Source: an uncultured virus (IMG/VR IMGVR_UViG_3300027779_000002)
Lineage: Duplodnaviria > Heunggongvirae > Uroviricota > Caudoviricetes
DNA: 64,000 nucleotides
Virus record (IMG/VR): IMGVR_UViG_3300027779_000002
Strand: one strand, 5' to 3'
This document shows, piece after piece, positions 58,185-63,320 of the stretch (the stretch's first letter is position 1; every line of letters starts with the position of its first letter). The translations under genes were made by a program, and so were the position numbers. The notes beneath the pieces were generated by a model. That model was given only the letters and a program-made list of their open reading frames with translations. It did not search any database and was not told where the DNA came from.

Positions 58185-58619
58185 ATGCAAAAAGACTATT
58201 TAAAATATTGGAGGGTTGTTCGTTATTTTGTAAAATCAAAATATAAAATATCTACCGGCGAATTAGACATGCTTTTATTTTTATATTCAGAAAAATATTT
58301 TGGTAAAGATAAATTTAAAGAGTATGATGAATTATTAAGTTGGAATGTAAATCGTTTTGACCAACTGCTCAAACGAGGTTGGATAGAAGTCTTTCGCAAA
58401 AGAGTAGGTAAAAATAAAACGCTTTACAGTTTAAGTTTTAAAGCAAACAGAATGATACATTCTATTTATGAAAAATTAGAAGGCGGAGCTATTCCTGAAT
58501 CTCCTACATCAAATCCTATGTTTAAAGGTAATGTGACTTATACAGACAAGATATATCGTAATCAAATAAAAGAGATGAACAAGGTTATACAACAACAACA
58601 ACGTCTTGCTCCCGAATAA
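58185..58619 (+). CDS. winged-helix (MarR-like) DNA-binding protein
   Basis: STGELDMLLFLY...QLLKRGWIE...LYSLS.KA. Confidence 0.5.
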   Translation: MQKDYLKYWRVVRYFVKSKYKISTGELDMLLFLYSEKYFGKDKFKEYDELLSWNVNRFDQLLKRGWIEVFRKRVGKNKTLYSLSFKANRMIHSIYEKLEGGAIPESPTSNPMFKGNVTYTDKIYRNQIKEMNKVIQQQQRLAPE

Positions 58620-58851
58620 TAGTACAAGCTGTGCCTTCAAGCACCATTTGATATCCTGCACGCTTGTCATAGTATATTATATCATTACTATTAATTGACT
58701 TTACTTCTGTGCCGGGAGTTATAACTTTAGCTTTTTTATATCTAAATTGGTCAGCGTCATGTTCAGACAATAATAATCCTGACTCTGTCTTTAGTTCTTC
58801 TTTAATGTTTTCTACTATAAGGTATTTATTAATTGCTATCATTTGATTCAT
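58585..58851 (-). CDS. groES: co-chaperonin GroES
   Basis: KTESGLLL mobile loop, V..PG, DIIYY, IIREQDVV; adjacent to GroEL. Confidence 0.8.
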   Translation of the reverse strand: MNQMIAINKYLIVENIKEELKTESGLLLSEHDADQFRYKKAKVITPGTEVKSINSNDIIYYDKRAGYQMVLEGTACTIIREQDVVVVV

Positions 58852-60448
58852 ATGTTCTTGCCATTGTTATAATAGCGTTAGTAGATAATATAGTTATTGC
58901 TACAGAAACTGCATTTTGTAAAGCGTTCTTAGTTACTTTCATTGGGTCAATGATTCCCATGTCAATCATATTTCCATGTACTTCGTTCTTAACATCATAG
59001 CCTACTCCATTATGTTTATTAATTGGATATTTTTCTTCTATGGTTGCTCCTGCGTTTTCTAGTATTTGTGAAAGTGGTGCAGATAATGCACCATATAAAA
59101 TTGCGTCAGCAATTTTATGTGAATTTTTTTCTTTTTTTGATATGTATGCAGAACCAATATCATACAATGCTACTCCACCACCCGGTAAGATACCTTCTAA
59201 TAGTGCGGAACGTACAGCACAGACTGCATCATCTACCCTGTCATAGAGTTCTTTTTGTTCAATGTCGGTTTGACCTCCTACATATATAACTCCAATACCA
59301 CCGCTTAATGATGCTATACGAGATAGTATAAAATCTTTGTCATTTTTATTTGAAGCATTTTCATGTGCTTGCCACAATTGTAAAACTCTCTTTCCTACTT
59401 TAGCAACAGACTCAGTTGATTTAATTAATATACTAGACTCTTTACCAATTATACATTTATCAGCATGACCTAAGTCACTAAACGAAATTAATGATAAGTC
59501 ATCACCTGTTTTTTCAGAAAAGTAATTTGCTCCAACCGATACTGCAATATCTTGCATAAGCTCATGTTGTTTGTATCCAAACTGTGGAGGACCTATAACA
59601 CAAACTTGTAAACCATTCTTGACTACGTTTGCTGCTAAAGTATTTACAACATTAATAGACATAGGTGCAATAATTAATAATTTCTTTTGCTCATTAATAA
59701 TTGGCTTTAGTATATTCTCTATTGATAATACGTTTGATATCTCTGCATCACTTACTAAGACATGTACGTTATCTAATATACACTCGTCTTTCTTTTGATT
59801 ATTAATAAATAAAGGCGATGTCCACCCTCTCTCAATTTTAATTCCGTTTGTGGTCTCGCTATAAGTGGTACTTGAATCCGATTTCTCTACAGTAACTATT
59901 CCGTTTTTACCAACCTCCTTATATGTATCAGCAATAACTTTACCAATTACTTTGTCATTGTTCGCAGATATAACAGCTACATCAAGTAATCTTTTATTAG
60001 TAATTTTTTTTGAAACCTTTTTTAAATTGTCTATTACTACCTCAGTTTCTTTTAATACCTCTTTTAATACCTCCGCTCTGTTTGTGGTATCATCCATTAA
60101 GGCATCGCCTTGCTTAACTAATGCTTCAGTAAGAACAATAGCAGTAGTTGTGCCATCACCCGCAGAGGTTGCAGTATTATCCGCAGCCTGCTTCATCATA
60201 CGAACCGCAAGGTTCTCAACAGGGTCTAATAAATCTACAGCTTTAGCTACGGTTACTCCGTCTTTAGTTACGGTTAACCCGCCTGTTACATATTGTGATT
60301 CGATGAGGACTGTATTCCCTCTAGGACCTAATGTGCTTTTAACTGCGTTTGCGATTTGTGTAATTCCGGAAATAAGCTTTGCTCTTCCGTTTTCACCAAA
60401 GGATAATTCTTTGGGATTAAAGCCTGATGGCATGTTGATTTGATTCAT
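58829..60448 (-). CDS. groEL: chaperonin GroEL
   Basis: AVKSTLGPRG, TKDGVTVAK, AGDGTTTA, GILPGGG, GIIDP.KV. Confidence 0.95.
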   Translation of the reverse strand: MNQINMPSGFNPKELSFGENGRAKLISGITQIANAVKSTLGPRGNTVLIESQYVTGGLTVTKDGVTVAKAVDLLDPVENLAVRMMKQAADNTATSAGDGTTTAIVLTEALVKQGDALMDDTTNRAEVLKEVLKETEVVIDNLKKVSKKITNKRLLDVAVISANNDKVIGKVIADTYKEVGKNGIVTVEKSDSSTTYSETTNGIKIERGWTSPLFINNQKKDECILDNVHVLVSDAEISNVLSIENILKPIINEQKKLLIIAPMSINVVNTLAANVVKNGLQVCVIGPPQFGYKQHELMQDIAVSVGANYFSEKTGDDLSLISFSDLGHADKCIIGKESSILIKSTESVAKVGKRVLQLWQAHENASNKNDKDFILSRIASLSGGIGVIYVGGQTDIEQKELYDRVDDAVCAVRSALLEGILPGGGVALYDIGSAYISKKEKNSHKIADAILYGALSAPLSQILENAGATIEEKYPINKHNGVGYDVKNEVHGNMIDMGIIDPMKVTKNALQNAVSVAITILSTNAIITMARTYESNDSN

Positions 60449-60992: not shown

Positions 60993-61050
60993 CACATTTT
61001 GTTTTCTGTAAAGATACAAAAAAAATTGTAAGATATGTGTAGTATTTAGA

Positions 61051-61271
61051 CTCCCCCCCCTCACACGCAATCACCCGACAAAAGAAAACTCAAAAAAAAA
61101 GTTGACCCCCCCTGAAGATTTAAATGTTTACGTTCAGATTTTTTAGGAAAACGCCTGACCCCTGTCACCCTCTACCCCTCCCCCCCCTGTACACCTACTG
61201 CTCTACGTTTGTCGTACCACATACCCACACACACACACGCATACACGCCTACCTTCCCCCTATTATATCCC
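61051..61271. other. C-rich non-coding junction (candidate genome end/packaging region)
   Basis: multiple C4-C9 runs and a (CA)n tract at the strand switch in an otherwise AT-rich genome. Confidence 0.45.
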
Positions 61272-61330
61272 TATATGAATCTTATAATATCATAACAAGC
61301 TAAGAGATATAAGAGTGCATCCCCTCAACG

Positions 61331-61338
61331 TATCTTTG
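61331..61338 (+). promoter_or_regulatory. -7 element TATCTTTG (candidate early promoter)
   Basis: consensus match upstream of + strand early genes. Confidence 0.45.
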
Positions 61339-62698: not shown

Positions 62699-62725
62699 TA
62701 TCCTGAGCATGATACCAAACTGCTC
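62699..62725 (+). ncRNA. H-type pseudoknot, copy 1
   Basis: P1 TATC(62699-702)/GATA(62711-14); P2 GAGCA(62705-09)/TGCTC(62721-25). Confidence 0.7.
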
Positions 62726-62774
62726 CTGTCCACAAGTGAGTGCTTGTGCTGATGAGTTCAAAAGAACGAAACAG
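62726..62774 (+). ncRNA. type III hammerhead ribozyme, copy 1
   Basis: CTGTC^ - stem I CACAAG/CTTGTG - CTGATGA - stem II GTTC/GAAC - GAAA - CAG; canonical core with GUC site, predicted cut after 62730. Confidence 0.9.
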
Positions 62775-62799
62775 AAATATTAAATTAATAAATAACATT

Positions 62800-63189
62800 A
62801 TGTACACAAGAGAACAATTAAGTAAAATGACAACTGAAGAATTTTTAACAGCTATGGGTTTTGAGATTCAAATCGGCAATATTTGGAATCGGTCAGCAGA
62901 CAAATACGCATGGACAGAGACTTCAAAAGATGGTTATGATTTGTATGTACTATCAGACAATAATTCTAATCCTAGCATCTGTGATGACATTCATTATGAT
63001 GAATACGGATTCATTGATAGCTTCAAAGAATACATTCAACACTCCTGTTATTGTGAAGAAACAATCGCTATTGAAGAACACCTTTTAGAAGATGTAGATG
63101 CATTATTCGATGAAGATGAAATGTTTGATATTGCAGTTAAATTAGACAAAGCAGAGGAAGAAGAATTTGAAGAGGAAGTTACAGAGTGA
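62800..63189 (+). CDS. highly acidic 129-aa early protein (DNA-mimic candidate)
   Basis: ATG after TAAATAACATT leader; about 36 D/E versus 8 K/R by hand count. Confidence 0.65.
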   Translation: MYTREQLSKMTTEEFLTAMGFEIQIGNIWNRSADKYAWTETSKDGYDLYVLSDNNSNPSICDDIHYDEYGFIDSFKEYIQHSCYCEETIAIEEHLLEDVDALFDEDEMFDIAVKLDKAEEEEFEEEVTE

Positions 63190-63223
63190 TTTGGTAGTTT
63201 CGTTTATTTTTCGTACATTGCAA

Positions 63224-63250
63224 TATCCTGAGTAAGATACTAAACTACTC
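63224..63250 (+). ncRNA. H-type pseudoknot, copy 2
   Basis: TATC/GATA and GAGTA/TACTC (compensatory change relative to copy 1). Confidence 0.7.
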
Positions 63251-63299
63251 CTGTTTCGAGATGAGTGTCTCGACTGATGATTCCAAAAGGATGAAACGG
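63251..63299 (+). ncRNA. type III hammerhead ribozyme, copy 2
   Basis: CTGTT^ - stem I TCGAGA/TCTCGA - CTGATGA - T-TCC-AAAA-GGA-T - GAAA - CGG; predicted cut after 63255. Confidence 0.8.
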
Positions 63300-63320
63300 A
63301 AACTTAAATTAAATAACATT

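Follow-up and report, generated by a model that had tools for sequence, protein, structure and literature searches.

The 64,000-nt stretch analyzed here (the window) belongs to an uncultured virus of the Caudoviricetes (IMG/VR record IMGVR_UViG_3300027779_000002) and carries two copies of a module in which a 27-nt pseudoknot is followed, with no spacer, by a type III hammerhead ribozyme (Table 1). Both knots lie inside one 93-nt direct repeat of 73% identity and differ from each other at 4 of 27 positions, namely two loop positions and the P2 pair 10-24 (C-G versus U-A). The TAG of an ArdC-family gene, in which Pfam recognizes ArdcN and MPTase-PolyVal domains, lies 5 nt ahead of copy 1; the loops of this knot are L1 (CU), an L2 of 1 nt and L3 (62715-62720), which has AAAC at its end. 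Stem III of the first hammerhead adjoins this knot, and cleavage is predicted after 62730 (GUC). For the second hammerhead, whose stem III contains a U.G and whose stem II has a U.U at its base, cleavage is predicted after 63255 (GUU); in both copies the predicted cut sits 5 nt past the knot. The core (CUGANGA and GAAA), three stems and an NUH site with an open stem III were parsed in both ribozymes. Both score under the Rfam gathering cut-off, the second matching Hammerhead_3 (RF00008) at 63248-63302 with 28.4 bits (E 0.006). The initial annotation had placed both knots directly 5' of hammerheads with a cleavage site 5 nt away, had put the start of copy 1 5 nt past the ardC stop codon and had regarded the knot as lying outside the hammerhead consensus, all of which was confirmed.

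Table 1. Features of the window at and near the two knot-hammerhead cassettes
Feature	Position	Strand	Remarks
Phage GroEL (Pfam Cpn60) and adjacent GroES-like small gene	58585-58851 and 58829-60448	-	
ArdC-family anti-restriction gene, 310 aa	61761-62693	+	Pfam PF08401 E 5.8e-23; PF18818 E 4.5e-28
Knot copy 1	62699-62725	+	P1 62699-62702/62711-62714; P2 62705-62709/62721-62725
Type III hammerhead 1	62726-62774	+	CUGAUGA 62749-62755; GAAA 62768-62771; HH9 partial match E 0.11
Hypothetical gene, 129 aa	62800-63189	+	A/U-rich leader without Shine-Dalgarno
Candidate flavobacterial promoter	63190-63221	+	TTTG 63190-63193; TAnnTTGY 63214-63221
Knot copy 2	63224-63250	+	P2 pair 10-24 is U-A; upstream stop codon 34 nt before
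Type III hammerhead 2	63251-63299	+	CUGAUGA 63274-63280; GAAA 63293-63296
Hydrophobic hypothetical gene, 76 aa	63321-63551	+	A/U-rich leader, same type as that of the 129-aa gene

The 129-aa and 76-aa genes gave no match in a Pfam search. Cleavage would release the former as a single cistron that starts with a 5'-OH and carries the knot at its 3' end. The RNA between the two predicted cuts (62731-63255) would bear the termini that circularization requires, a 5'-OH and a cyclic phosphate. No further copies of the cassette were found in the window, and the same two are the only ones in a close relative (G002, 99% complete). In addition, a low-complexity non-coding stretch with C runs and CA repeats lies at 61050-61300, where genes switch from the minus to the plus strand, and may represent a genome end or packaging region; a TAnnTTTG box is located just past it, at 61331.

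The knot is a compact H-type pseudoknot with a P1 of 4 bp, L1 of CU, a P2 of 5 bp and an L3 ending in AAAC, and it is probably held by loop-helix triples. The geometry of a 4-bp plus a 5-bp stem alone is not rare (about 50 occurrences on the plus strand of the window), and proof of the fold was therefore taken from homologues, each stem being left free in turn in pattern searches. When P1 was left free in a scan of viral sequences (at least 121 loci), 122 of the 124 matches listed paired at three or more of the four P1 positions, with all four paired in 101 and three in 21. When two P2 pairs were left free and forced off the consensus, both were Watson-Crick in 61 of 65 unique matches, and at least two of the three free P1 positions were also paired in 64 of these 65. 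Similarly, three or more of the four P1 positions were paired in 69 of 74 matches in species genomes. Across 100 distinct sequences, which were pre-filtered for pairing so that the P1-free and P2-free searches are the cleaner tests, 97.3% of cells pair, compared with 77.7% after shuffling (none of 500 shuffles was as high) and 22-42% in slid controls on the same sequences. Moreover, the five top pairs by corrected mutual information among 198 distinct 28-mers are all predicted ones (3-14, 2-15, 8-26, 1-16 and 9-25). Of the pairs of the family, 10-24 shows the weakest covariation (MIp 0.045), with U.G in 42 of 198 sequences and C.A in 7. The compensatory swap reported earlier for P2 is thus genuine but falls on the most tolerant and weakest covarying pair, while the wider set of homologues establishes covariation of P2 through the 61 of 65 matches given above. 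The excess of U.G over C.A at this pair (49 versus 13) points to the plus strand as the RNA.

Further examination of the instances, from which matches with fewer than three P1 or four P2 pairs were excluded, revealed a closing C-G pair in 468 of the 472 listed, which was also recovered by a search leaving that pair free. The loop reads C-U-G-R-R-Y-A-N, with position 2 being U in 470 and C in 2 of the 472 listed, a position that was largely fixed by the search patterns. In L3 the first two bases vary widely, AAAC-U is kept and R-C follows, with insertions tolerated; AAAC-U was fixed in the search patterns, and its invariance is no independent measure.

Pooled searches yielded at least 472 instances representing at least 351 distinct motifs and at least 280 flank clusters. 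The knot is mostly a stand-alone element, very widespread in phages and mobile DNA of many phyla, which the initial annotation had missed. The exact pattern of the window occurs without a hammerhead at 10 of 11 loci, and in searches not selecting for hammerheads, only 1 of 175 representatives has a hammerhead behind the knot. Matches in species genomes come mainly from Saccharibacteria and other Patescibacteria, prophages of Lactobacillales, Actinomycetota, Cyanobacteria and Chloroflexota. Among 12 cultured phages inspected, clear copies are present in SIO1, S-H35, Labelle, Edson, Amigo, ParMal1, phig1e and Vibrio D456; the crAss-like phage cr7_1 has a good copy with the outer pair unpaired, StB12 and the Pasteurella phage have a knot with a single mismatch, and the E. 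coli phage flopper has one with an imperfect P1. Searches with the Rfam 15 models (including RAGATH, pistol, twister, HDV-like and preQ1) gave no match over the knot on short pieces with E values up to 10, and no Rfam family fell on the knot at 40 loci. No account of the motif in phages or bacteria was found in the literature searched; the only virus match to an 11-mer of the motif in the literature is due to chance. The knot is hence a real RNA family uncatalogued in Rfam 15, in line with the initial annotation, which could not assign it to a named family.

With regard to gene context, 199 of 269 representatives have a co-directional ORF ending at most 40 nt upstream of the knot. The stop-to-knot distance in these 199 has a sharp onset: none at 0-2 nt, 1 at 3, 8 at 4, 39 at 5, 31 at 6 and 19 at 7 nt, followed by a tail. 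Likewise, 113 of 211 knots lie 5-9 nt past a stop codon and none at 0-2 nt. By a crude ORF tiling of 127 representatives, made after three loci (L154, L183 and L262) had been dropped as chance matches, 70 are flanked by co-directional genes on both sides, 19 lie at convergent ends, 9 at divergent starts and 16 inside a called ORF. At least six U residues occur in the 8 nt directly past the knot in 22 of 175 representatives (0-2 in control windows); such a tract is absent from both window copies. The first base past P2 is A in 61%, and no conserved base was found flanking the knot on its 5' side. In 11 of 280 representatives a sense tRNA gene starts no more than 20 nt past the knot, in 3 of 280 one ends no more than 20 nt ahead of it, and two of 280 knots are bracketed by tRNAs on both sides. 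The knot fills the spacer between two tRNA genes at L505 (419-770), and also at L472 and L098. At L505 it lies 5 nt after the first tRNA and 4 nt before the next, and would therefore be cut out during tRNA processing. Among the upstream genes that could be named are ArdA, ArdC, RadC, DUF932, DUF7249 and Hsp20 (Pfam named 21 of 85 upstream proteins), and no shared function was found among the downstream genes. A ligand-binding role, one of the options raised initially, is unlikely given this lack of a common downstream function.

Several recurrent settings were also observed. In five Saccharibacteria loci (L223, L245, L256, L271 and L282) from five flank clusters, the knot lies 5-7 nt past a DUF7249 gene with differing downstream DNA. 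In Lactobacillus and Staphylococcus prophages the knot stands at the head of the scaffold/capsid leader, and in Firmicute prophages L225, L249, L280, L406 and L409 it forms the beginning of a long leader that precedes the capsid scaffold gene. The homology among phig1e-like prophages starts exactly at the knot (with a loose end at 996). The prophage locus L054 matched 22 RNA-seq runs, as contigs; the four examined span the knot, and the contigs give no ends, strand or level. Among 64 multi-member clusters, 30 contain pairs sharing only the downstream flank and 16 pairs sharing only the upstream flank, a result inflated by hammerhead-selected searches. Close knot pairs occur at 8 loci. L532 (1-570) holds a tandem array of about ten degenerate knot copies with a period of about 55-60 nt and A-rich linkers; no toxin gene was seen in its 813 nt. 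A hairpin-like element with a GTAGCCCA-type core lies about 20-50 nt 5' of the knot in unrelated genomes (L228, L274, L290 and L295). At L090, L501 and L516 a conserved stretch 15-60 nt past the knot, with a short hairpin and a CUGAUGA-like run and no GAAA, is possibly another small RNA; the L501 stretch has no Rfam match. Stop-codon recoding, read-through and frameshifting were rejected, as reading-frame extensions (frames 0, -1 and +1) tended to be short and to disagree among the 116 representatives. An enrichment of amber stops at 5-7 nt in the first set (19 of 34) faded in a larger one (37 of 89 versus 34 of 110). General promoter-proximal placement was also rejected (exact TAnnTTTG in 3 cases versus 3 in the control; no -10 peak).

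The association with hammerheads was analyzed in searches selected for it. A metagenome scan for the knot plus CUGANGA gave 109 unique matches, of which 107 are valid knots and 46 have a strictly parsed type III hammerhead; a looser parser found fusions in 90 of the 472 instances, with 47 distinct hammerhead types, counts that stem from hammerhead-selected searches. The cut lies 5-8 nt past the knot in 39 of the 47 types, stem III follows without a spacer in 33 of 47, and a spacer of at least 3 nt is present in 7 of 47. This recurrent placement before 47 distinct hammerhead types is new. As an unbiased control sample, the same hammerhead subfamily was fetched by its ribozyme core only (87 upstream clusters). 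By script the slot 5' of the hammerhead contains a strong hairpin in 63 clusters (25 expected from shuffles), a knot in 4, a weak structure in 5 and none in 15. By eye, two of the scripted hairpins (L628 and L655) and one scripted as empty (L624) are knot variants, which leaves about 61 of 87 with a strong hairpin and 7 of 87 with a knot. These hairpins (-8 to -25 kcal/mol) begin 5-9 nt past a stop codon in 38 of 56 cases, and in 49 of 64 they are separated from the cut by 5-7 nt. Because they occupy the same slot as the knot, with matching spacing to stop and cut, hairpin and knot are interchangeable parts of one module composed of stop codon, structure, hammerhead, leader and next gene. Three of four instances of G-C-closed knot variants precede hammerheads, a small and search-biased set.

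Among described RNAs, the close named look-alike, which the initial annotation had not mentioned, is the coremin motif (xrRNA-C) reported from plant, fungal and other RNA viruses (PMC6546385, PMC10520033 and PMC10321173). Coremin is described as a short C-G-closed hairpin with a spacer ending in AAACUAC (PMC10520033), and a Watson-Crick variant, xrRNA-WCC, with a 3-bp loop-spacer stem has been reported (PMC10321173). The knot shares with it a first hairpin of 3-4 bp closed by C-G, a pyrimidine as the first and an A as the second-last loop base, a spacer with two free bases followed by AAAC-U-R-C, a proposed loop-spacer pseudoknot of the luteoviral type, and a placement that is often just past a stop codon. 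However, coremin needs G at loop position 2 (consensus YG(n)AD), where the 8-nt loop of the knot has U, and coremin loops CCGAA and CCGAAA reportedly did not stall Xrn1. The knot further differs in its full 5-bp covarying P2, in its occurrence in DNA phages and bacterial mobile DNA, and, in the window, in its position 5' of a ribozyme cut, from which it cannot shield downstream RNA. A second hairpin after the spacer, which can be as short as 2 bp in coremin according to PMC10520033 and PMC10321173, is present in 15 of 153 knots at -4 kcal/mol or better (shuffled mean 6.4), a threshold that would miss 2-bp hairpins; in the window, stem III of the hammerhead stands at this place. The knot thus does not match coremin in two defining features, the G at loop position 2 and the second hairpin; it may still act in the manner of coremin in RNase J hosts.

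The plain stem-loops 5' of phage type III hammerheads share the slot and the distances to stop codon and cut, with a U-tract behind a subset; they are long G-C-rich stems, whereas the knot is a pseudoknot with an invariant loop sequence and weak nearest-neighbour stability. It differs from an intrinsic terminator in that the base past P2 is mostly A. Stem-loops of the terminator and REP types are 3'-protective structures of a related kind. Type III hammerheads of prophages (RF00008) are described as having the same canonical core and as occurring in several copies flanking single genes and near anti-restriction genes (Perreault 2011, PMC3088659). The pseudoknots reported there join stems I and II and speed catalysis, unlike that of the window, a self-contained fold located 5' of stem III and not within the ribozyme. 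Ribosome termination structures (Chemla 2020, PMC7518266) are likewise stable folds at the edge of the terminating-ribosome footprint, occurring in longer intergenic gaps and at convergent ends, and are described as a statistical folding signal without sequence consensus, in contrast to the defined 27-nt family analyzed here.

The phage is probably flavobacterial, judging from its GroEL relatives, promoter boxes and leader type. Its GroEL has its best match (61%) in an uncultured spring phage, and the nearest cultured relatives are Flavobacterium phages (37-38% identity). The flavobacterial promoter box has been placed at positions -12 to -5 (PMC9723704), and the predicted start site of the candidate promoter (about 63225-63226) coincides with the first bases of knot 2. 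Copy 2 thus likely lies at a promoter start site and, with the cut predicted 5 nt past it, a 30-nt knot RNA would be freed. A TAnnTTTG box is also intact 3 nt before the knot at three other loci (L210, L574 and L589). None of 81 Flavobacteriales genomes passed the cut-off for RNase J (TIGR00649), which is present in all four non-Bacteroidota host genomes tested; in a flavobacterial-looking phage, a block to 5' exonucleases would therefore be without an obvious target. A restriction of the knot to RNase J hosts is ruled out by its distribution, which includes crAss-like and Vibrio phages, and by the 0 of 81 Flavobacteriales.

We consider it about an even chance that the knot is a 3'-end cap or insulator interchangeable with a hairpin. 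As it occupies the slot that a plain hairpin fills in related phages, it most likely protects the fresh end of the upstream message, and this interchange makes the 3' exonuclease barrier proposed in the initial annotation the best reading for the hammerhead-linked slot. A long early message would be cut by each hammerhead, with the knot staying on the upstream piece 5 nt from the new 3' end; there it would leave 3'-to-5' exonucleases almost no single-stranded tail, as the hairpin would in related phages, and would also prevent upstream RNA and ribozyme from misfolding together. Both the message of ArdC and that of the single gene behind it would terminate in a knot followed by 5 nt and a cyclic phosphate, and the downstream pieces would start with a 5'-OH and a stem. 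The distance of 5 nt from the stop codon fits the ribosome entry channel. It also agrees with the distance at which ribosome termination structures are reported to peak (PMC7518266), and it would be the nearest position at which a structure stays folded beneath a terminating ribosome. The knot would thus be a portable cistron-end structure of phage early transcripts.

Protection of mRNA ends by 3' secondary structure is documented (PMC3997798), and hammerheads flanking phage genes have been proposed to cut transcripts into gene-length mRNAs (PMC3088659). The excess of tRNAs after the knot, the U tracts and the convergent ends are other 3'-end signs in favour of a cap. On the other side, most copies have no recognizable cut site behind them (a hammerhead in 1 of 175), and co-directional genes on both sides (70 of 127) fit any model. 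Sharing of the downstream flank only exceeds that of the upstream flank only (30 versus 16 clusters), prophage copies stand in scaffold/capsid leaders, and a pure 3' cap does not explain copy 2 at its probable start site. P2 alone has a predicted stability of -3.9 and -1.9 kcal/mol, compared with -8 to -25 kcal/mol for the hairpins, and a plain cap would need no invariant loop bases. Five added A residues were reported to suffice for stimulating decay of a stem-loop end in E. coli (PMC3997798), so the 5-nt tail may be enough for attack. The host assignment, moreover, is drawn from GroEL identity of 37-38% and motifs.

A different emphasis, which we hold only tentatively, is that the knot halts the ribosome after termination, so that it neither re-initiates nor runs into the next leader, a tRNA or the ribozyme, and aids folding by stacking on the short stem III, with stability of the RNA end being secondary. 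Such a roadblock is favoured by the sharp 5' edge that the knots show 4-5 nt past a stop codon whatever the context (39 of 199 at 5 nt, none at 0-2 nt). It is also favoured by reports that ribosome termination structures have their maximum close to the edge of a terminating ribosome and act as insulators against re-initiation (PMC7518266), and that coremin halts ribosomes during scanning and promotes frameshifting, in an E. coli screen as well (PMC10520033 and PMC10321173). However, plain hairpins have the same spacing, compact genomes together with the ribosome footprint explain it without contact, no read-through or frameshift frame is conserved, and knots between tRNAs (L505) have no ribosome nearby. 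As for the folding aid, stem III abuts the knot in 33 of 47 hammerhead types, but a spacer of 3 nt or more separates them in 7 of 47; the knot may stack on stem III, a version of the initially suggested modulation of ribozyme folding. A 5'-to-3' shield like the coremin xrRNA, which would block RNase J or RNase E scanning and protect the downstream message, appears rather unlikely. The conservation of the knot follows the coremin mutational map (PMC6546385), the RnHV2 7-nt loop reported to stall Xrn1 is one U off the knot loop, RNase J is present in the 4 of 4 non-Bacteroidota hosts tested, and the downstream linkage (30 versus 16 clusters) and copy 2 at a start site point in the same direction. 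In a hammerhead fusion, though, the shield would act only until the cut, after which the knot is on the wrong fragment; because the cut detaches it from the downstream RNA and RNase J was found in 0 of 81 Flavobacteriales, this role is doubtful in the window. The copies in crAss-like and Vibrio phages, the imperfect one in an E. coli phage and the 19 knots at convergent ends also stand against it, as do U at loop position 2, where coremin needs G, and the second hairpin in only 15 of 153. G-C closure, which abolishes Xrn1 resistance of coremin, does occur before hammerheads (3 of 4 instances, small and search-biased).

It seems less likely still that a knot with a start or processing site on each side becomes a separate 30-35-nt RNA and acts in trans as a decoy, binding a nuclease or defence protein. 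Copy 2, with a promoter directly before it and a cut 5 nt after it, the knots in tRNA spacers (2 of 280 bracketed on both sides), the L532 array, the close pairs at 8 loci, the invariant loop bases and the neighbouring ArdA, ArdC, RadC and DUF932 genes would all suit a released RNA, yet few copies are bracketed in this way, the majority being solitary and part of an mRNA, and neither a co-occurring partner gene nor a toxin gene in the 813 nt of L532 was seen. The array and the released knot presumably resemble pseudoknotted type III antitoxin repeats. That the knot itself is a new small self-cleaving ribozyme or a ligand sensor is very improbable: it is replaced in the slot by plain hairpins and not by ribozymes, a second cutter 5 nt from the hammerhead site would be redundant, there is no conserved 5' flanking base, the downstream genes have no common function, and coremin offers a structural explanation of the invariant bases. 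HDV-like and pistol ribozymes were rejected by inspection against their helix architectures, as the required helices are absent. What remains in favour of a ribozyme or sensor is that a range of many phyla, a pseudoknot and invariant bases are said to flag biochemically demanding RNAs (PMC5737381) and that the gene neighbourhoods are typical of ribozymes. Finally, as a speculative combination to which we give limited weight, the coremin fold, which stops Xrn1 in eukaryotic RNA viruses, could be a cross-domain roadblock that DNA phages and bacterial mobile DNA of many phyla use against decay from both directions: in RNase J hosts it would shield the 5' side, and ahead of ribozyme or RNase P cuts it would cap the 3' end. 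Where bracketed (copy 2, tRNA spacers and tandem arrays), it would be released as a 30-nt RNA, which might sequester nucleases of the host or defence proteins.

What self-cleaving ribozymes do for phages is described as still open (PMC6765202). The module of stop codon, cap (a hairpin or the conserved knot), hammerhead and leader makes the idea of cutting a message into separately stabilized cistrons testable with a construct of 60-80 nt. Moreover, the fully Watson-Crick, covarying P2 provides a natural model for the unsolved coremin structure. Should the knot also stop nucleases that arrive from the 3' side, it would represent a very small RNA stabilizer acting in both directions, useful in synthetic biology.
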